A stretch of DNA of 64,000 nucleotides, taken from contig CP064979.1 in the NCBI GenBank assembly GCA_016699575.1, positions 400,824 to 464,823 of the forward strand, written 5' to 3'. Made by a program: the position numbers and the translations under genes. Each line of letters begins with the position of its first letter. Position 1 is the first letter of the stretch. Under the pieces are notes generated by a model, which searched no databases, was not told the DNA's origin, and saw only the letters and a list, made by a program, of their open reading frames with translations. Below, piece after piece: positions 38,057-46,766 of this stretch. Source of the DNA: Flavobacteriales bacterium. GTDB lineage: Bacteria; Bacteroidota; Bacteroidia; Flavobacteriales_F; PHOS-HE28.

Positions 38057-38150
38057 TCACCACAGAGGCACAGAGGACACCGAGAAGAACAAGATGAACA
38101 CCGTTGCTCATCAATCGCATTCCTCCGTGCCCTCTGTGCCTCTGTGGTGA
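38057..38150 (+). promoter_or_regulatory. 20 bp perfect inverted repeat (long hairpin) in the fadB leader, enclosing an 18-codon ORF
   Basis: TCACCACAGAGGCACAGAGG ... CCTCTGTGCCTCTGTGGTGA are exact reverse complements with a 54 nt loop. The loop holds ATG...TGA encoding MNTVAHQSHSSVPSVPLW. Confidence 0.6.
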
Positions 38151-38165
38151 AGCATTCACACACAC

Positions 38166-40544
38166 ATGAGCAAACGAAACATCCGCAAAGTCGCCGTGCT
38201 CGGCAGCGGCGTCATGGGCAGCCGCATTGCCTGCCACTTCGCGAACACCGGCACCGAAGTGCTGCTGCTCGACATTCCAGCCAAGGAAGGTCCGCGCAAC
38301 AAGATCGTGGACGACGCACTCGCCGCCGCGATCAAGAGCAGTCCGGCGCCCCTGTACGATGCACGCTTCGCCAAGCGCATCAGCACCGGCAACTTCGACG
38401 ACGACCTGCCCAAGATCAAGGACTGCGACTGGATCATCGAGGTCGTGATCGAGCGGCTCGACATCAAGCAGCAACTGCTGGAGAAGGTGGAGAAGCACCG
38501 TACACCGGGCACGCTCATCACCACCAACACCAGCGGCATCCCGATCCACGCCATCAGCGCGGGCCGAAGCGACGACTTCCGCAGGCACTTCTGCGGCACG
38601 CACTTCTTCAACCCGCCGCGCTACCTGCCGCTGCTGGAGCTGATCCCCGGTCCGGACACCGACCCCGCGGTGCTCGCCTTCCTGGAGGACTACGGCCAGC
38701 GCATCCTTGGCAAGGTCACGGTGATGGCCAAGGACACGCCCGCCTTCGTGGCCAACCGCATCGGCGTGTTCGGCATCATGGACGTGTTCCACCTCGTCAC
38801 CGACATGGGCCTTACGGTGGAGGAAGTGGACCGCCTCACCGGCCCCGTGATCGGCCACCCGAAGAGCGCCACCTTCCGCACCGCCGACGTGGTGGGCCTC
38901 GACACGCTGGTGAAAGTCGCGCAGGGCGTGAAGGACAACTGCCCGCACGACGAGCGCAACAGCCTCTTCAGCATTCCGGAGTACCTGCAGCAGATGGTGG
39001 AGAAGAACATGCTCGGCAGCAAGACCGGCAAGGGCTTCTTCTTCAAGGACCGCAACTCACCCAAGGGCGAGATCCTCTCCCTCGACCTGAAGACGCTGGA
39101 GTACAAGCCACAGGTGAAGCCCAAGTTCGCCACGCTGGACGCGGCGAAAAAGGTGGATGACCTGCGCGAGCGCCTCAAACTGGTGTACAACGGCACCGAC
39201 AAGGCCGGCGAATTCTACCGCCGTTCGTTCCAGGCGATGTTCGCATACGTGAGCCACCGCATCCCCGAGATCAGCGACGAGCTGTACAAGATCGACGACG
39301 GCATGCGCGCCGGCTTCGGCTGGGAGGCGGGTCCGTTCGAGACCTGGGACGCCATCGGAGTGCAACAAGTGAAAGATGAAATAGGAAAGCTGAAAGCTGA
39401 AAGTGGAAATGCGCTGACCATCGCGCCATGGGTGGATGAGATGCTTGCGGCTGGTCATACTTCGTTCTACAAAGTGGAGCAGGGCCAACGCCTTTACTAC
39501 GATGTCGCGAGCAAGAGCTACAAGCCGGTGCCACGCGCGGAAGGCTTGATCGTTCTCAACGAATTGCCAGAAAGCAGCATCGTGTGGAAGAACAGCGCCG
39601 CCACCGTGCGTCACCTCAGCGATGGCATCCTGAGCGTGAGCTGGACGAGCAAGATGAACACCATCGGCGCGGAGGTGATCCAGGGCCTCAACAAAGCCAT
39701 CGACCTCGCCGAGCAGGGCTACAAAGGCCTGGTGGTCTACAACGACGGCGCCAACTTCAGCGCGGGCGCCAACGTGGGCATGATCTTCATGATGGCCGTG
39801 GAGCAGGAGTACGACGACCTGGAGATGGCCGTGCGCACCTTCCAGAACACCATGATGCGCATGCGCTACAGCAGCATCCCCGTGGTGGCGGCCCCGCACC
39901 AACTGTGCCTGGGCGGCGGCACCGAGCTCTGCCTGCACGCGGACAAGGTGGTGGCGCACGCCGAGACCTACATGGGCCTGGTGGAATTCGGCGTGGGCGT
40001 GATCCCCGGCGGCGGCGGCACCAAGGAATTCGCCCTGCGCCTCGCCGACGAGCTGAAGGAGGGCGACATCCGCATCAACGCCATGCGCGAGCGCTTCCTC
40101 ACCATCGGCCAGGCCAAGGTGGCCACCAGCGGGCACGAGGCTTTCACGTTAGGCTACTTGCGTCGCGGCCAGGACGAGGTCATTGTCAGCCGCGCCCACC
40201 AGCTGGCCTACGCCAAGGCCTGCGCGCTGGAGCTGTGGAACAAGGGCTACACCAAGCCCGCACCGCGTAAGGACATCAAGGTGCTCGGCCAGGAAGGCCT
40301 CGGCATCGTGTACGTGGGCGCCAACAGCATGCTCAGCGGCAACTACATCAGCCAGCACGATGCGCTGATCAGCGAGAAGCTGGGCTATGTGCTATGCGGG
40401 GGTGACCTGAGCGAGGCTACGGAGGTCTCCGAGCAATACCTGCTGGACCTGGAGCGGAAAGCCTTCGTGGAGCTGTGTATGCAGCGGAAGACGCTCGAGA
40501 GACTTCAGTCGATCATTACTACGGGGAAAGTGTTGCGGAATTGA
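38166..40544 (+). CDS. fadB: bifunctional 3-hydroxyacyl-CoA dehydrogenase / enoyl-CoA hydratase (HCDH N-terminal, ECH C-terminal)
   Basis: N-terminal KVAVLGSGVMGSRIA Rossmann motif and HFFNPP. C-terminal crotonase fold VAAPHQLCLGGGTELCLHAD. About 792 aa. Confidence 0.9.
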   Translation: MSKRNIRKVAVLGSGVMGSRIACHFANTGTEVLLLDIPAKEGPRNKIVDDALAAAIKSSPAPLYDARFAKRISTGNFDDDLPKIKDCDWIIEVVIERLDIKQQLLEKVEKHRTPGTLITTNTSGIPIHAISAGRSDDFRRHFCGTHFFNPPRYLPLLELIPGPDTDPAVLAFLEDYGQRILGKVTVMAKDTPAFVANRIGVFGIMDVFHLVTDMGLTVEEVDRLTGPVIGHPKSATFRTADVVGLDTLVKVAQGVKDNCPHDERNSLFSIPEYLQQMVEKNMLGSKTGKGFFFKDRNSPKGEILSLDLKTLEYKPQVKPKFATLDAAKKVDDLRERLKLVYNGTDKAGEFYRRSFQAMFAYVSHRIPEISDELYKIDDGMRAGFGWEAGPFETWDAIGVQQVKDEIGKLKAESGNALTIAPWVDEMLAAGHTSFYKVEQGQRLYYDVASKSYKPVPRAEGLIVLNELPESSIVWKNSAATVRHLSDGILSVSWTSKMNTIGAEVIQGLNKAIDLAEQGYKGLVVYNDGANFSAGANVGMIFMMAVEQEYDDLEMAVRTFQNTMMRMRYSSIPVVAAPHQLCLGGGTELCLHADKVVAHAETYMGLVEFGVGVIPGGGGTKEFALRLADELKEGDIRINAMRERFLTIGQAKVATSGHEAFTLGYLRRGQDEVIVSRAHQLAYAKACALELWNKGYTKPAPRKDIKVLGQEGLGIVYVGANSMLSGNYISQHDALISEKLGYVLCGGDLSEATEVSEQYLLDLERKAFVELCMQRKTLERLQSIITTGKVLRN

Positions 40545-40600
40545 ACCGACAAAACGACGATCCCGTGTCACACGCGTTCAGCTATAAGCTCGCCAAGATG

Positions 40601-41059
40601 AAAGGTGGTCTTGGTCACTATGGTGAGATCACAGTGGTGGTTGAAGCTAGACTTGCGGATGAGCCGACTATTGTAGAGGCATACAGCGGAACAGGATGGG
40701 AAAGGCAAGGATATGCGCACACTATACCGGACAAGGGTTTCGATGATTGGAAATCGGCGATCCGAATGGGCATCGAATATGCTCTTCGTCGCTTGGAGGA
40801 ACAGAGCATCCGCGTTACAGTGAAAGAAGCCACTGGCTTGATCACTGACACGAACGCGACAATACTTGCCTATGCAGCGTCAAGAGCCCTCTTGGAGAAT
40901 CTTCCCAACCTGGAATCTCAGACGGAAAAGGACCGATTCGAGCAGCTTGTTTTCAGCAGTTTCAACTATGAAGACAGCGCCCAATTGGACCTGGAGCAGT
41001 TCCAGTTAATAGGCCAACTCAGGCCGAAGTCACCATATAGGGTTCAGGCAAATGGCTAA
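40601..41059 (+). CDS. hypothetical protein (island gene A)
   Basis: 152 aa from the MKGGLGHYGE Met. Local GC is about 50% against a host figure above 60%. No motif recognised. An alternative start at 40475 would overlap fadB. Confidence 0.4.
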   Translation, partial: KGGLGHYGEITVVVEARLADEPTIVEAYSGTGWERQGYAHTIPDKGFDDWKSAIRMGIEYALRRLEEQSIRVTVKEATGLITDTNATILAYAASRALLENLPNLESQTEKDRFEQLVFSSFNYEDSAQLDLEQFQLIGQLRPKSPYRVQANG

Positions 41060-41086
41060 GCATAGCCAGCAATATCATCTCATCGG

Positions 41087-41235
41087 TTGGGGCGTGCCGG
41101 CTCGCCCTTCGGCTCCGCAGAGCCGCGCTCAGGGTCTCGCCGTCGCGCTTGGAGTTCAGCCCGGGCTCGGACCCGGGCCTACAAGTCCTCGCGCGGATTA
41201 CCGCGCTGTGGGCTTTCCGCTGCAATCGCTCACGC
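41087..41235. repeat. intergenic repeat element, copy A (TTGGGGCGTGCC...hairpin...CGCGGATTACCGCG...GGCTTTCCGCTG)
   Basis: Shares a 12-mer and a roughly 60 nt 3' module with copy B at 46639-46740. The ATTA-loop hairpin shows compensatory changes between the two copies. Confidence 0.55.
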
Positions 41236-41239
41236 ATGA

Positions 41240-41488
41240 GTGCAAGCACGTGAACCTATGATTGACTTCGACCTAAATCGAACATGGGTCTCATTCACAT
41301 GTCCATCGTGTGCCTATATGGATGAAGTTCAGGTCGTGGATGTACGCTCAGAGAAGACCATATTCTGCCACAACTGTAAGTCCTCGATCCGACTCGTCGA
41401 CGGTGATGCTTCCGTGCACACCGGAGTTCGCGACATCAACGACTCCATGACTGACCTATTGAATACGTTCAAAAAGCTCGGACGCTGA
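41240..41488 (+). CDS. small C4 zinc-ribbon protein (island gene B)
   Basis: CPSC...(21 aa)...CHNC. 82 aa. The stop overlaps the next start (ATGA). Confidence 0.45.
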   Translation: MQAREPMIDFDLNRTWVSFTCPSCAYMDEVQVVDVRSEKTIFCHNCKSSIRLVDGDASVHTGVRDINDSMTDLLNTFKKLGR

Positions 41489-42450
41489 TGTACTACAATC
41501 ACAATCTCAGAACCAACCTACAGGAGTGGAAGAATCGCGTTCAGCGCGCTTCAACAAGCAACTTCGGATACCAGATAGACCTGTTGCTGAAGCACATTCA
41601 AGAGGAGCCTGCACTCAATGCGCTCATGGTTGAAGCCGCTCAGCAATTCCCGCATGAGGACGAGCACTTGCAGGAACGAATAAATCTCTATGACTCCAGT
41701 CAGCACATTCCATTCTCTGGACAAGCGGATCGCGCAGCTTTTTCCCAAGCTCTCTTGCATTGGATCATTAGGGAACATGGTGTCGAGTCCGTACCGCATA
41801 TGACCTTATTCATAGGAAGAAAGGATGTCCTCGGAGGAATAGTAGAAGACTGCGTGTCTCCAATTCTGGACTACTTACATGACCGCTTAGACAAGTCTAG
41901 TTCCACGTTGTACCTGCTTGAGAAATACAAGCGTCGGACGGAGTGGTTCATGAAGGACTCTCTCAGAACACGATATCTGTTGGCTGAGAAAGAATACGAG
42001 AAAATCTTCGAGGATGACCTGCGACTATTCCTGTTTGACCAAGGAATCGACTATCCCTTCTCAACCCCTAGTAGTCCTTCTGGCAGAGCTGACGTTGTCG
42101 GCGCTATTGACACCTCGGATCCGCTTGTTGTCGAAATCAAGATTTTCGACCGAAGCAAGAGCTATGGGAAGGATCGTGTACGAAGTGGTCTTGCTCAGGT
42201 CATGAAGTACGTAAATGACTACAACAAGGACTTTGGCTACCTAGTCATCTTCAATGCCGACAACGCTGAATTGCACTTTCAACTCGAAGACATCAGCAAG
42301 GCCTTCCCACCGATGCTTGTCTATAACAACAAGCGATACTTCTTCATAGTGGTCAACATCGGTGAGCATGTTGCAGCTAGCAAAGTCGGCAAGCAAGAGG
42401 TGATTGAACTGTCAACAGATTTCCTGGTATCCAAAGCAGAACTCGCGTGA
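41488..42450 (+). CDS. hypothetical protein with a C-terminal PD-(D/E)xK nuclease-like motif (island gene C)
   Basis: GRADVVGAIDTSDPLVVEIKIFD...GLAQVMKY...GYLVIFN fits a D...(D/E)xK restriction-endonuclease-fold core. The N-terminal roughly 190 aa has no recognisable motif. Low GC. Confidence 0.45.
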   Translation: MYYNHNLRTNLQEWKNRVQRASTSNFGYQIDLLLKHIQEEPALNALMVEAAQQFPHEDEHLQERINLYDSSQHIPFSGQADRAAFSQALLHWIIREHGVESVPHMTLFIGRKDVLGGIVEDCVSPILDYLHDRLDKSSSTLYLLEKYKRRTEWFMKDSLRTRYLLAEKEYEKIFEDDLRLFLFDQGIDYPFSTPSSPSGRADVVGAIDTSDPLVVEIKIFDRSKSYGKDRVRSGLAQVMKYVNDYNKDFGYLVIFNADNAELHFQLEDISKAFPPMLVYNNKRYFFIVVNIGEHVAASKVGKQEVIELSTDFLVSKAELA

Positions 42451-42601
42451 GGGAGAGCAGCGGAAAGCTCGGAGGCCTGTCATCAGGCCGAGGACCTGCC
42501 TGTCCGGCAGGCAGGCTTGCAGCGGATAGCCCGACGGCGCTGCTCTTGTGCGCCGGCACGCCCAACACTTCGACAAGTTCGGTGTGACGACCACCAAGCC
42601 A

Positions 42602-43444
42602 ATGAAAAAGCGCGCGATCACCGTCAAAGGCATCCCCGTCACCGTTGTGGAGCGGAACGAGCAGGACTACATCTCGCTCACCGACATGGTGCAGGGCTTC
42701 GAGGGCGGCAGCGCGCTGATCGAGCAATGGTTGCGCAACAAGGACACGGTGCTCTTCCTGGGTGTGTGGGAGCAGCTGAACAACCCGGCGTTCAATTCCC
42801 TCGAATTCGAGGGAATTGGGAACGCGGCCGGCCGCAACAGTTTCTACCTGTCGGTGAAGAAGTGGATCGACGCCACCGGTGCGATCGGGCTGCACGCGCG
42901 CGCTGGCGGACATGGCGGCACGTATGCGCACAAGGACATCGCCTTCGAGTTCGGTTCGTGGTTGAGCCCAGAGTTCAAGCTGTACCTGATCAAGGAGTTC
43001 CAACGGCTGAAGGAAGCGGAGGCCAGCAACCAGTCGCTGGAATGGAACCTGCAGCGCACTCTGGCCAAGGTCAACTACCGGATCCACACGGATGCCATCA
43101 AGGAGCATTTGATCCCACCGGTGCTCAGCAAGGCGCGCATCAGCGGGGTGTACGCTACCGAAGCCGACCTGCTGAACGTAGCCCTGTTCGGCCTCACCGC
43201 TTCCGAGTGGAAACGGGCCAACCCATCACTTGCCGGCAACATGCGCGACCGCGCCACACTGGAACAACTGGTCGTGCTTTCCAACCTGGAGAGCATCAAC
43301 GCCGTGATGATCCAGCAGGGCCTCGGATCAGCGGAGCGCCTGCAACAACTGAACACGACCGCCATCGGACAGATGAGATCGCTCACCGCAGGTCGCGCAG
43401 CGGACAAGCTGCTGGCGGCCGGCAAGAAGAAACCAAAGAACTAA
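42602..43444 (+). CDS. KilA-N domain protein
   Basis: KRAITVKGIPVTVVERNEQDYISLTDMVQG is a typical KilA-N N-terminal DNA-binding domain. The C-terminal half is of unknown function. Confidence 0.65.
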   Translation: MKKRAITVKGIPVTVVERNEQDYISLTDMVQGFEGGSALIEQWLRNKDTVLFLGVWEQLNNPAFNSLEFEGIGNAAGRNSFYLSVKKWIDATGAIGLHARAGGHGGTYAHKDIAFEFGSWLSPEFKLYLIKEFQRLKEAEASNQSLEWNLQRTLAKVNYRIHTDAIKEHLIPPVLSKARISGVYATEADLLNVALFGLTASEWKRANPSLAGNMRDRATLEQLVVLSNLESINAVMIQQGLGSAERLQQLNTTAIGQMRSLTAGRAADKLLAAGKKKPKN

Positions 43445-43450
43445 GACCCC

Positions 43451-43618
43451 ATGAACGCATACATCATCGCCGGTTTCCGCAGCGCAGTGGGCAAAGCGCC
43501 CTGCCATCGGCAGGCAGGCGCACGCAAATTCCGTTTCACGCGTCCGGATGACCTGGCCGCGCACGTGGTGAACCACCTGGTGGGTTCGGCGCCCCATAAA
43601 CCACACCCAACCACCTGA
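43451..43618 (+). pseudogene. truncated duplicate of the thiolase 5' end (first roughly 45 codons, then a frameshifted tail)
   Basis: ATGAACGCATACAT...GTGGTGAACCACCTGGTGGG is about 90% identical to 45441-45565. It contains a 22 bp insertion and terminates after 55 codons. Confidence 0.7.
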
Positions 43619-43741: not shown

Positions 43742-44374
43742 GTGAAACGCCCCTCGGTAGAAAAGCTGGTACTGGCGCGCATGGAAGAGCGTGGCCGTGG
43801 CAGCGTGCTCACCCCCAAGGATTTCTGCGACCTGGGTGGGCGCAGCGCGGTGGCCGTGGCCTTGCACCGGCTGGTGAAGAAGGAGGTGGTGCGCAACATC
43901 GGCAACGGCTTGTACTTCTTCCCGGAGCTGGGCGGGATGTTCGGGGAGTCGATAGCGGGTACCTACGAGATCGTCGCCGCCATTGCCAAGCGCGATGGGA
44001 TCACGATACGCGAGACACATGCTTACGCGTCCAACATCACGGGCATAAGCACCCAGGTGCCTACGCGTGTTGCCTTTCAAACCGATGGTCGTTCCCGAAA
44101 GATCCGTTTGAAGCCCATGATACCGGGCGGACGTGCGAATGAGATCATTCTCCGACGCACCAGTTCGCGCTACATGCGGGCGCGCACCGAGGTGGGCTAC
44201 TTGGTGATCCAGGGCCTGCGTGACTACGGTCGAAAGAACATCGGTAAGGAGGAATATGCCGAGCTGCTCAGACGGCTGCCCCCTCACGGAAAAGAGGATC
44301 TGAAAAAGGACCTGGACATCGCCCCGGTCTGGATCGCGGACATCATGCGTCGATTGATCGCTGAAGCACCATGA
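43742..44374 (+). CDS. abiEi: AbiEi-family antitoxin / transcriptional regulator (type IV toxin-antitoxin)
   Basis: N-terminal wHTH-like region, about 200 aa, 4 bp overlap with the downstream nucleotidyltransferase gene. GTG start (alternative ATG at 43781). Confidence 0.65.
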   Translation: MKRPSVEKLVLARMEERGRGSVLTPKDFCDLGGRSAVAVALHRLVKKEVVRNIGNGLYFFPELGGMFGESIAGTYEIVAAIAKRDGITIRETHAYASNITGISTQVPTRVAFQTDGRSRKIRLKPMIPGGRANEIILRRTSSRYMRARTEVGYLVIQGLRDYGRKNIGKEEYAELLRRLPPHGKEDLKKDLDIAPVWIADIMRRLIAEAP

Positions 44375-45444
44375 GCGCGCATCCATTCCTCCATTTACCG
44401 GAAGCACGGCAACGTTCATTGCTTATTCGTGCCAACAATCTACTCCCCCTCGCGATATCCAGTATCGAGAAGGATGTCTACGTCTGCCTCTTTCTGGAGA
44501 AAGTGATGGCACTTCCTGGCATCGGCGAGCATCTCACGTTCAAAGGCGGCACGTCACTCTCCAAGGCGCACAAGATCACGGACCGTTTCTCCGAGGATGT
44601 GGATCTGGTAGTTGATCGCCATGTGCTTGGTCTCGCGGAAGATGGCATCCCCGGCGGACATCATTCTCCGAGGCAACAGAAGGAGCGCGCAAAGAAGATC
44701 GCGAAAGCCTGTCGAACATGGGCTGCAAATACACTCATTCCCGCCTTACGCACTTCCCTCGCAACTGAACTGCGCAATGGCTCATGGAGCCTCGACCTGA
44801 ACGCCGACAGCGATAACCATGAGACAGTGCTCTCATTCGGCTATCCCAAGCTTTTCGTACCGGACGGCGAGTACATCCTGGACCATGTGAAGGTGGACCT
44901 CGTGGCGAAGGCCGATGCTTGGCCAAGCACAACGATACCTGTGTGCGCTTACGTACATGAGCTCTTCACGGAAGAGTTCGGCGATGGTTCATTCCCAGTC
45001 CGCACACTGGAAGCTGAACGCACGTTGATCGAAAAAGCACTGTTGCTTCACGAAGTTCTGGTCCAGCGTCCGGATGGTCCACGTCGTCGATTGGCGCGGC
45101 ACTACTTCGACCTGTACTTCCTCCATCGCGCCGGTGCAACAACAAAAGCCATCGCCCGAGCTGACCTGTATCCTGCTGTCGTTCAACAGCGCAGCATCTA
45201 CTACCGCTATCCCGGAGTGGACTACGATGCGCTATTGACAGAAGGCTTCAGCATCATTCCGCAAGGCGCGGCACGTGCTGCTTGGCATAGCGACTACGAC
45301 GGCATGCAGAGCGATATGTTCTATGGAAACGTGCCAGCCTTCGACGACATCATGACCGCCATGGAACAGTTCCAAGCAACGTTCCGCGAGCATCTTCAAC
45401 AAACGACATCAGCGCCGAGCAGTCGGCAACACGAACACCCATGA
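44371..45444 (+). CDS. abiEii: AbiEii/AbiGii-family nucleotidyltransferase toxin (DUF1814)
   Basis: KGGTSLSKAHKITDRFSEDVDLVV matches the GGT(A/S)L...R.SED(I/V)D pol-beta-like nucleotidyltransferase core of AbiEii. Confidence 0.75.
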   Translation: MSAHPFLHLPEARQRSLLIRANNLLPLAISSIEKDVYVCLFLEKVMALPGIGEHLTFKGGTSLSKAHKITDRFSEDVDLVVDRHVLGLAEDGIPGGHHSPRQQKERAKKIAKACRTWAANTLIPALRTSLATELRNGSWSLDLNADSDNHETVLSFGYPKLFVPDGEYILDHVKVDLVAKADAWPSTTIPVCAYVHELFTEEFGDGSFPVRTLEAERTLIEKALLLHEVLVQRPDGPRRRLARHYFDLYFLHRAGATTKAIARADLYPAVVQQRSIYYRYPGVDYDALLTEGFSIIPQGAARAAWHSDYDGMQSDMFYGNVPAFDDIMTAMEQFQATFREHLQQTTSAPSSRQHEHP

Positions 45445-46616
45445 ACGCATACATAATCTCCGGTTTCCGTTCCGCCGTAGGCAAAGCGCCCCGCGGCAAA
45501 TTCCGTTTCACGCGTCCGGATGACCTGGCCGCGCACGTGGTGAACCACCTGGTGGGCTCGGTGCCCGGGCTGGAGCGCGACCGCATCGACGATGTGATCG
45601 TGGGCAACGCCACGCCCGAGGCCGAGCAGGGCCTGAACATCGGCCGCATGATCAGCCTGATGGGCCTGAACACCGACAAGGTGCCGGGCATGACGGTGAA
45701 CCGCTACTGCAGCAGCGGCAGCGAGACCATCGCCATTGCCGCGGCCAAGATCCACAGCGGGCAGGCCGACGTGATCGTGGCGGGCGGCGTGGAGTGCATG
45801 AGCCCGATCCCCTTCGGCGGCTGGCGCATCGTGCCGAACGCCAAGGTGGGCAAGGCGCAGCCCACGTACTACTGGGGCATGGGCCTCACCGCCGAGGCCG
45901 TGGCGCGCGACTTCAAGGTGAGCCGGGAGGACCAGGACGCCTTCAGCCTGCGCAGCCACGAGAAGGCGCTGGCCGCGATCAGCTCCGGCAAGTTCAAAGA
46001 CGAGATCGTGCCCTACACCGTGGAGCGCGTGTACCTGGACGCGAAGGAGAAGCGCCAAGTGGAGCAATACGTGGTGGACACCGATGAAGGTCCGCGCGCG
46101 AGCACCCTGGAGGCGCTGGCTAAGCTGAAGCCCGTGTTCGACGCGAAGGGCAGCGTGACGGCAGGCAACGCCAGCCAGACGAGCGATGGCGCGGCCTTCG
46201 TGCTGGTAGTGAGCGAGCGCATGCTGAAGCAGCTCAATGTGAAGCCGATCGCGCGCCTGCTCTCCTACCATGTGGCCGGGGTGGAGCCGCGCATCATGGG
46301 CATCGGTCCGGTGGCGGCAGTGCCGAAGGCGCTGGAGAAGGCCGGGCTGAAGCTGAGCGACATCGGGCTGTTCGAGCTGAACGAGGCCTTCGCGAGCCAA
46401 TCGCTGGCGGTGGTGCGCGAGCTGGGCATCGACCCGGAGATCGTGAACGTGAACGGCGGCGCGATCGCGCTGGGGCATCCGTTGGGGTGCACGGGCGCGA
46501 AGCTGAGCGTGCAGTTGTTCAATGAGATGCGGCGGCGGAAGCAGAAGTATGGGGTGGTGACGATGTGCGTGGGGACGGGGCAGGGGGCGGCGAGTGTGTT
46601 TGAGTTGTTGAATTGA
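45441..46616 (+). CDS. fadA: acetyl-CoA C-acyltransferase (thiolase II)
   Basis: NRYCSSGSETIA (active-site Cys), ...GNASQTSDGAA..., and C-terminal NVNGGAIALGHPLGCTGA. Confidence 0.9.
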   Translation: MNAYIISGFRSAVGKAPRGKFRFTRPDDLAAHVVNHLVGSVPGLERDRIDDVIVGNATPEAEQGLNIGRMISLMGLNTDKVPGMTVNRYCSSGSETIAIAAAKIHSGQADVIVAGGVECMSPIPFGGWRIVPNAKVGKAQPTYYWGMGLTAEAVARDFKVSREDQDAFSLRSHEKALAAISSGKFKDEIVPYTVERVYLDAKEKRQVEQYVVDTDEGPRASTLEALAKLKPVFDAKGSVTAGNASQTSDGAAFVLVVSERMLKQLNVKPIARLLSYHVAGVEPRIMGIGPVAAVPKALEKAGLKLSDIGLFELNEAFASQSLAVVRELGIDPEIVNVNGGAIALGHPLGCTGAKLSVQLFNEMRRRKQKYGVVTMCVGTGQGAASVFELLN

Positions 46617-46638
46617 TGGAGCAGAAGCGGGATAGTGT

Positions 46639-46740
46639 TTGGGGCGTGCCCCCGCCTCAAATGCAGGCGGGGTCCGGCTTTCCGCTGTACTCCTCGCACG
46701 GATTACCGTGCTGCGGGGTGCCGCTCCAATCCGTCACGCG
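46639..46740. repeat. intergenic repeat element, copy B, with a terminator-like hairpin
   Basis: TTGGGGCGTGCC + CCCGCCT-CAAATGC-AGGCGGG hairpin + CGCACGGATTACCGTGCTG module, lying between convergent genes. Confidence 0.55.
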
Positions 46741-46766
46741 AATACCTATCCGGAACAACCCGGAGT

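Follow-up and report, generated by a model that had tools for sequence, protein, structure and literature searches.

A conserved two-gene module of a zinc-ribbon protein and a putative RecB-like nuclease in a variable gene-cassette hotspot of a Flavobacteriales bacterium

Results and Discussion

Within a 64,000-nucleotide stretch of the Flavobacteriales bacterium assembly GCA_016699575.1 (contig CP064979.1, positions 400,824 to 464,823 of the forward strand; hereafter the window), we analysed three co-directional open reading frames (ORFs) at 40.5–42.45 kb, here called genes A, B and C. A preliminary description of this DNA had noted the three ORFs and proposed that they form a single three-gene defence cassette. 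We found that B and C are a conserved, horizontally transferred, self-contained two-gene unit and that gene A is a separate, lineage-restricted gene outside this module. Gene C is the probable effector, with a C-terminal domain that carries the motifs of a RecB-like PD-(D/E)xK nuclease, and we lean towards reading B–C as an uncharacterised nuclease-based defence or toxin–antitoxin (TA) module. The three genes and the predicted parts of the C protein are placed in the window as follows.

41258–41488, + strand: gene B, 76-aa zinc-ribbon protein
41488–42450, + strand: gene C, 320 aa, probable effector
41488–41982, + strand: N-terminal domain of C, residues 1–165, all-helical in the AlphaFold2 model
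41983–42447, + strand: C-terminal domain of C, residues 166–320, putative RecB-like PD-(D/E)xK nuclease
42091–42210, + strand: putative catalytic core of C, defined by invariant residues
42091–42093, + strand: D202
42133–42135, + strand: E216
42139–42141, + strand: K218
42196–42198, + strand: Q237
42208–42210, + strand: Y241
40565–41059, + strand: gene A, 164 aa from GTG, function unassigned, adjoining the 3′ end of a fadB-like gene

Genes B and C co-occur across bacterial phyla

A pattern scan with one genome per species yielded 64 C-bearing loci, 62 of which were assessable for B. B was found directly upstream of C in 53 of these 62 loci (tblastn). The upstream ORFs encode 63–108 aa with two CxxC motifs and end 0–10 nt before the C start or overlap C, the junction in most loci being −4, −1 or 0 nt. 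All-against-all clustering of the 789 ORFs of the loci gave a C cluster of 63 members and a B cluster of 49, with the next largest cluster reaching only 8. The arrangement of B upstream of C spans at least eight phyla, including Bacteroidota, Actinomycetota, Bacillota, Chloroflexota and Proteobacteria, and is also present in one archaeon. The hosts of the 64 loci were mostly Bacteroidota and further included Ignavibacteria, Leptospirales, Nostoc, Actinomycetota (several Streptomyces), Bacillota, Chloroflexota, Proteobacteria and a Nitrososphaera archaeon. The family is carried on plasmids in Streptomyces, Kitasatospora and Polaromonas, and in the annotation of the Streptomyces phaeoluteigriseus plasmid (NZ_CP099470.1, 3524–4722) both appear as hypothetical proteins whose genes overlap. 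A phage origin of B–C was considered and rejected, as a tblastn search for the C family found no match in 50,697 phage records.

In the window, the two genes meet at the sequence TGATG, in which the B stop codon (41486–41488) and the C start codon (41488–41490) share 1 nt. The preliminary description had read an ATGA start–stop overlap at this junction; a 4-nt overlap of that kind occurs in many homologous loci, not in the window itself. B and C are translationally coupled through this junction, and they share with type II TA modules the feature of a small partner gene that adjoins the effector gene and is coupled to it.

The GC content of A, B and C is 50.0%, 48.9% and 47.7%, respectively, compared with 60.5% for the window, and their GC content at third codon positions (GC3) is 53–60%, compared with 88–91% in the flanking fadB-like and thiolase genes. 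B–C is therefore strongly atypical for its host, and the low GC attributed earlier to the trio stands on both measures. All three are real genes, since each is under purifying selection, with ratios of nonsynonymous to synonymous substitution rates (dN/dS) of 0.15 for A, 0.09 for B (against the relative L072, described below) and 0.03–0.12 for C.

The B protein has the pattern W-x-x-x-x-C-P-x-C ... C-H-N-C-K, after which comes a helix with a basic C-terminus, so that the CxxC...CxxC ribbon reported before was recovered here as CPSC...CHNC. Its family matches were all below threshold, namely YnfU (24.7 bits, cut-off 36), DUF7836 and Elf1-type zinc ribbons, and PADLOC-DB v2.0.0 returned only marginal, chance-level matches of 13 bits to models other than HEC. 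A homologue search with B alone gave 2 matches; this count reflects the word-index limit for a 76-aa query and is uninformative on other partners.

Two variants of the arrangement were observed. In Parageobacillus and Anoxybacteroides (L056 4386–4646 and L058 5683–5943), a cysteine-free, unrelated 86-aa protein precedes C in place of B, with a tyrosine integrase adjoining; this protein may be a swapped partner. The chromosome of Olleya sp. R77988 carries two B–C copies (L008, 2663152–2676102; L022, 529912–542862) with identical B, and short repeats flank at least one of them.

Gene C encodes a putative RecB-like PD-(D/E)xK nuclease

We identified 457 homologues of C in a 90%-clustered database, and a profile search returned 893 representatives at 50% identity, 640 of them with E ≤ 1e-10; nearly all representatives are about 320 aa long and cover both domains. 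Family members are called hypothetical proteins by NCBI, and UniRef automatically names two homologues, one as "PD-(D/E)XK nuclease superfamily protein" and the other as "Restriction endonuclease".

Twelve residues (E171, Q185, G186, P190, S192, G199, D202, E216, K218, Y226, Q237 and Y241) do not vary among the 59 full-length homologues examined, which range down to about 30% identity; D202, E216, K218, Q237 and Y241 are likewise constant in alignment A1. The elements are ordered as a helix with an acidic residue, D, 13 residues, ExK and a helix with QxxxY. The motifs D...ExK...QxxxY characterise RecB-family and HsdR-type PD-(D/E)xK nucleases, and QxxxY marks the RecB-like subgroup. Both the catalytic D...(D/E)xK signature of the superfamily and the QxxxY that follows the ExK strand (Q237, Y241) were present in 59/59 sequences. 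The D...E-I-K core named in the preliminary description, which reads GRAD...EIK in the window, is accordingly a conserved feature, and that description had made its own proposal depend on such conservation among homologues.

Similarity searches with C matched no family in Pfam, NCBIfam, PHROGs or PADLOC-DB v2. In PADLOC-DB v2.0.0, C matched 0 families at E ≤ 1, and the neighbouring KilA-N and AbiE proteins, which served as a positive control, matched strongly. The earlier statement that the genes fit no named system thus holds for B–C, which is without a model in all four collections. When 31 aligned homologues were scanned against Pfam, PDDEXK_3 appeared in 3 (E 0.067–0.12) and HSDR_N in 1 (E 0.1), these weak matches covering the ExK strand and helix. 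A PDB profile search gave 0 matches at E ≤ 10. An hhalign comparison of C with the HsdR N-termini of neighbouring type I enzymes placed D...ExK in register at a non-significant level (E 0.09, probability 0.6%).

The structure prediction suggested in the preliminary description produced a two-domain AlphaFold2 model of full-length C with a predicted local distance difference test score (pLDDT) of 80.6, and structure searches did not confirm the nuclease fold. In the model, residues 1–165 are all-helical, including a 50-residue helix, and are followed by an alpha/beta C-terminal domain. The most conserved segment of the protein, residues 190–208 (YPFSTPxSxSGRAD), has pLDDT <50, and modelling the domain alone brought no gain there. 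The predicted nuclease assignment of C is well supported by its motifs; the alpha-beta-beta-beta-alpha-beta core fold of the superfamily is unconfirmed for it, because Foldseek against the PDB returned nothing below E 0.16 and residues 190–208 were modelled at such low confidence. Similarity of the N-terminal domain to HPt and HEPN-like bundles is generic only, and a HEPN identity was rejected because the domain has no Rx4–6H motif.

Gene A lies outside the module

The preliminary description had placed the start of gene A at 40601. The most likely start, judged from sequence comparison, is GTG at 40565: it gives 164 aa, as annotated for the identical NCBI protein QQR87013.1 of a Flavobacteriales metagenome-assembled genome (MAG), and the extended N-terminus is preserved in a relative that has GTG (Val) in place of the internal ATG. 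Only 5 homologues of A were found, all in Flavobacteriales MAGs or metagenomes of the same lineage.

In the window, A, B and C are co-directional, adjacent and alike in their low GC, as one would expect of a three-gene cassette. A tblastn search nevertheless found A in 0 of the 64 C-bearing loci, with only B and C co-occurring elsewhere, and among relatives with the same fadB–thiolase hotspot, L066–L069 carry A without B–C and L072 carries B–C without A. The tight packing claimed for the trio applies to B and C and fails for A and B, between which lies a GC-rich (65.7%), repeat-bearing spacer of 198 bp. We therefore rejected A as a third component, and the three-gene model is refuted as a conserved unit.

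B–C occupies a hotspot of exchangeable cassettes

The B–C cassette lies between a fadB-like gene and a thiolase gene, together with KilA-N and AbiE genes and several structured repeats. All ORFs between the two flanking genes are co-directional.

38166–40544: fadB/fadJ-like 3-hydroxyacyl-CoA dehydrogenase gene, left flank (Pfam labels taken from syntenic relatives)
41100–41235, + strand: GC-rich multi-hairpin Flavo-1-like repeat, cassette junction
42445–42540, − strand: GC-rich multi-hairpin Flavo-1-like repeat, cassette junction, inverted
42548–43444, + strand: KilA-N gene (Pfam KilA-N, E 1.8e-19)
43448–43594: duplicate of the thiolase 5′ end, about 150 nt
43742–44374, + strand: AbiEi
44371–45444, + strand: AbiEii
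45441–46616: thiolase gene, right flank (Pfam label taken from syntenic relatives)
46620–46745, + strand: GC-rich multi-hairpin Flavo-1-like repeat, cassette junction
L066 6547–6643, 8762–8872 and 10534–10736; L069 6538–6587 and 8542–8648; L072 651–748: Flavo-1-like repeats in relatives

The KilA-N and AbiE genes that the preliminary description placed beside the trio lie directly downstream of it, KilA-N first and then AbiEi/AbiEii. The KilA-N protein, whose start is probably ATG 42602, matches the PADLOC candidate single-gene system PDC-S22 (E 3e-125) and PHROG 2657 ("transcriptional regulator"). It travels with B–C on one 100%-identical metagenome contig (L073) and is found neither in L072 nor in any other locus. 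AbiEi/AbiEii is a type IV TA or abortive-infection pair.

Comparison of the same gap in relatives revealed different contents. In L066–L068 it holds A, a repeat and AbiEi/AbiEii, with neither B–C nor KilA-N. The L069 gap contains another gene, a second copy of the fadB 3′ end (74-aa ORF, L069 5756–5980), A and a 631-aa protein with Schlafen/AlbA_2 and HATPase_c_4 domains (L069 6633–8528) that stands in place of B–C, KilA-N and AbiE. In L072, the closest B–C relative, it holds a different 109-aa gene, a repeat, B–C and a different downstream gene; B–C there shows 79.5% nucleotide identity over window positions 41204–42483, and B 83% amino-acid identity. These variants indicate that the transferable unit is the 1.28-kb B–C cassette and that A, KilA-N and AbiE are independent cassettes. 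The C gene of L072 is frameshifted into two overlapping ORFs of 150 and 178 aa (L072 992–1941), which points to a frameshift pseudogene or else to an error in the assembly.

The AbiE genes of the hotspot are divergent as well. The flanks of the window are 86–95% identical to those of L066, whereas AbiE (window 43742–45444, L066 7084–8755) is alignable over 458 nt only, at 68% identity, and this difference suggests allelic replacement of a defence cassette.

Repeats mark the cassette junctions. The window holds three copies within 6 kb and none in the other 58 kb. They score 32.8 bits against the Rfam family Flavo-1 and those of the relatives 33.3–38.8 bits, slightly under the gathering threshold of 42. 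Flavo-1 is an RNA motif of unknown function that was first reported in PMC2864571. An inverted pair at 41173–41235 (− strand) and 42445–42507 (+ strand) (63 nt, 71% complementary) forms the left and right boundaries of the B–C cassette, and the block of B–C homology with L072 both begins (41204) and ends (42483) inside repeats. Positions 41179–41235 are 100% identical to the L066 copy downstream of the thiolase gene, which is the copy scoring 38.8 bits, and 42443–42492 matches the copy following A in L069 at 90%. A direct repeat of about 147 nt (43448–43594 and 45438–45566, 86–97% identity), formed by duplication of the thiolase 5′ end, brackets AbiEi/AbiEii; the upstream copy is a dead fragment of 55 codons. 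From these junctions we infer that cassettes were exchanged by recombination at Flavo-1-like repeats and at core-gene ends. The Flavo-1-like repeats may be recombination boundaries and not small RNA genes.

Inverted repeats flanking B–C were not found at the other loci, of which one or two gave short matches only. Because homologous loci in other taxa are without them, the flanking repeats belong to the hotspot rather than to B–C. That B–C is in general a transposon-like unit carrying inverted repeats of its own was rejected, the repeats in the window being Flavo-1-like elements of the host.

Neighbourhoods of B–C in other genomes

When we examined the surroundings of B–C in the other loci, the neighbours were almost wholly locus-specific. 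HsdM, HsdS or HsdR lies within three genes of B–C in 8 loci (L010, L021, L028, L029, L032, L035, L043 and L061); hsdS immediately precedes B–C in L028, L029 and L035, and the first two of these also have hsdR downstream. Recurrent neighbours of defence type were N6_Mtase/HsdM, AAA_15 with OLD-TOPRIM (matching GajA, AriA and Old), UvrD, Eco57I and MmeI; Schlafen/AlbA_2, DUF4238, Hypoth_Ymh, GmrSD and KAP NTPase also recurred. Mobile-element neighbours were tyrosine or phage integrases and a resolvase. In a Draconibacterium locus, HEPN_Cthe2314, AAA_13 and WapI genes surround B–C. No methyltransferase is conserved beside the pair, and no neighbour cluster extends beyond 8 of the 62 loci; the methyltransferases that do occur nearby, type I HsdM or Eco57I/MmeI enzymes, belong to separate systems.

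We tallied 224 nearest neighbours, taking the two nearest genes per side and aggregating family counts, and defence and mobile-element families head the resulting list. These surroundings are suggestive of a gene that serves defence or conflict. The argument from neighbourhood made in the preliminary description thus held as far as the variable surroundings are concerned, which are rich in defence genes and mobile elements and in several loci lie inside type I restriction–modification (R-M) operons; the anti-phage function that it drew from them remains an inference from context.

In L043 (7905–12116), a 1404-aa protein of the HsdR cluster lies downstream of B–C. Its N-terminal FKGGTALSK...RFSEDIDLVV reads, by eye in the alignment, like an AbiEii-type nucleotidyltransferase motif.

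Proposed function and alternative explanations

We somewhat favour a model in which the B–C cassette landed in a variable fadB-like/thiolase hotspot that also holds KilA-N/PDC-S22 and AbiE, and in which C would act as the effector through a C-terminal RecB-like PD-(D/E)xK-type nuclease, presumably Mg2+-dependent. The 165-residue helical domain of C probably regulates, oligomerises or senses. B would bind C, either keeping the nuclease inactive in the manner of an antitoxin or supplying nucleic-acid recognition. B or the helical domain would hold C inactive, or target it, until the cell is infected or the element is lost, and the entry of a phage or plasmid would free the nuclease, or guide it, to cut DNA. 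An antitoxin-like role for B is a tentative proposal, favoured because of the arrangement of a small upstream gene and because B is replaced by the unrelated 86-aa protein in Bacillota.

Several points weigh against this model. C has no significant profile match to any family in the Pfam, PDB profile or hhalign comparisons. Enrichment of defence genes near B–C is only suggestive, because the two-gene-per-side counts were aggregated without a background control, and many of the neighbours are housekeeping genes. About 15% of the loci are without B. Defence, toxicity and nuclease activity are predicted properties of B–C.

Part of the same evidence would fit a plain type II TA addiction pair, with C as a nuclease toxin and B as a zinc-ribbon antitoxin, which would stabilise mobile DNA and have no dedicated anti-phage role. 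A small gene overlaps, from upstream, a larger gene for an enzyme, the patchy and mobile distribution of the pair takes in plasmids and integrase-adjacent loci, and the exchange of B for another protein in L056 and L058 is like antitoxin swapping. A position inside type I R-M operons and proximity to Abi, OLD and Gabija-type genes are more typical of defence, although TA modules gather there too, and toxicity of C is a supposition; we consider a plain addiction pair unlikely, while noting that addiction and defence roles are not mutually exclusive. Somewhat less likely again is that C is a solitary restriction endonuclease, either a Type IV modification-dependent or an orphan Type II enzyme, that cuts foreign DNA directly with B as a DNA-binding or controller subunit. 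This would agree with the invariant D...ExK...QxxxY, the UniRef name of one homologue, the R-M-rich neighbourhood and the undemonstrated toxicity of C. The missing conserved methyltransferase beside the pair rules out a classical Type II R-M system, family scans detected no modification-reader domain (PUA, SRA, wH or DUF3427), and the N-terminal helical bundle has no DNA-reader homology.

RecB-like motifs also occur in repair nucleases and some loci have housekeeping neighbours only, so that B–C could serve housekeeping or mobile-element maintenance (DNA repair, recombination or element transfer) that has nothing to do with conflict. The patchy cross-phylum distribution, the atypical composition and the hotspot location speak against such a role, as do the lack of a conserved repair or transfer partner, the lack of matches in phage genomes and the two copies in one Olleya genome, and we hold it to be improbable. 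The A–B–C cassette of the preliminary description is the least credible of these explanations, hardly to be expected given the confinement of A to one lineage and its separation from B–C in the hotspot variants.

A bolder extension of the defence or TA reading, which we regard as speculative and unlikely as a whole, is that B–C is a new, widespread anti-phage system of bacteria and archaea in which the helical domain and the zinc-ribbon partner gate a divergent RecB-like nuclease by a mode of sensing unlike any characterised one, with the cassettes shuffled in Flavobacteriales at structured Flavo-1-like repeats. If that were true, the orphan Flavo-1 "RNA motif" would turn out to bound cassettes or to serve as a site of recombination.

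Relation to known systems

The C-terminal domain of C resembles RecB-family and HsdR-type PD-(D/E)xK nucleases (clan families PDDEXK_3 and HSDR_N) in motif order and spacing, from D202 through 13 residues to E216-x-K218 and Q237-xxx-Y241. It differs from them in a unique invariant QGIDYPFSTPxSxSGR before the D, in its fusion to a family-specific 165-aa helical domain without a helicase or ATPase, and in lacking a significant profile or structure match.

In the 8 loci where B–C lies between hsdS and hsdR or adjoins type I R-M genes, it resembles PrrC/RloC and the HEC "guilt-by-embedding" systems; prrC occupies the same position in EcoprrI. Embedded genes were mostly true defences when tested (bioRxiv 10.1101/2024.01.29.577857). 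B–C has no sequence relation to any of these, C being unmatched though the PADLOC library includes HEC models; its effector would be a DNase, in contrast to an anticodon nuclease, and most B–C loci lie outside R-M operons.

MqsA/MqsR is a type II TA pair with a zinc-binding antitoxin, and B–C shares with such pairs a gene for a small zinc-binding protein upstream of an overlapping enzyme gene, as well as a mobile, patchy distribution. Unlike MqsA, B has no helix-turn-helix domain and no MqsA homology, and C is a 320-aa two-domain putative nuclease and not a small RNase. Shedu is a single-gene system, SduA, a DUF4263 PD-(D/E)xK nuclease with a variable N-terminal sensor domain; B–C has two genes and gave no DUF4263/SduA match in Pfam or PADLOC. 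With the AbiE and PDC-S22 cassettes, B–C has in common the fadB–thiolase hotspot and the behaviour of an exchangeable cassette, but the proteins are unrelated and do not co-occur with B–C in other loci.

A literature search, with the supplementary candidate lists of large screens outside its scope, found no description of the B–C pair. A nuclease effector with a small partner in defence islands follows a familiar logic. Uncharacterised nuclease-containing defence candidates are numerous, and B–C is a solid lead among them and not a surprise. The family has no Pfam, NCBIfam, PHROGs or PADLOC model and yet comprises about 900 clusters in at least eight phyla and an archaeon. If validated, it would add a compact two-gene nuclease system of about 1.2 kb to the prokaryotic immune repertoire and would provide a further test case for predicting defence from position inside type I R-M operons. 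The fadB–thiolase hotspot illustrates the exchange of small cassettes among close relatives, with A, B–C, KilA-N/PDC-S22, divergent AbiE alleles and a Schlafen/AlbA_2-like ATPase as its contents.

Further observations at the locus

A promoter and terminator scan of the island gave nothing useful, the sigma-70 consensus not being appropriate for Bacteroidota. Between the MarR-family and fadB-like genes, positions 38057–38084 and 38123–38150 form a 28-nt inverted repeat that is 93% complementary across a 38-nt spacer, and this element (38057–38150) could be an operator or a terminator.

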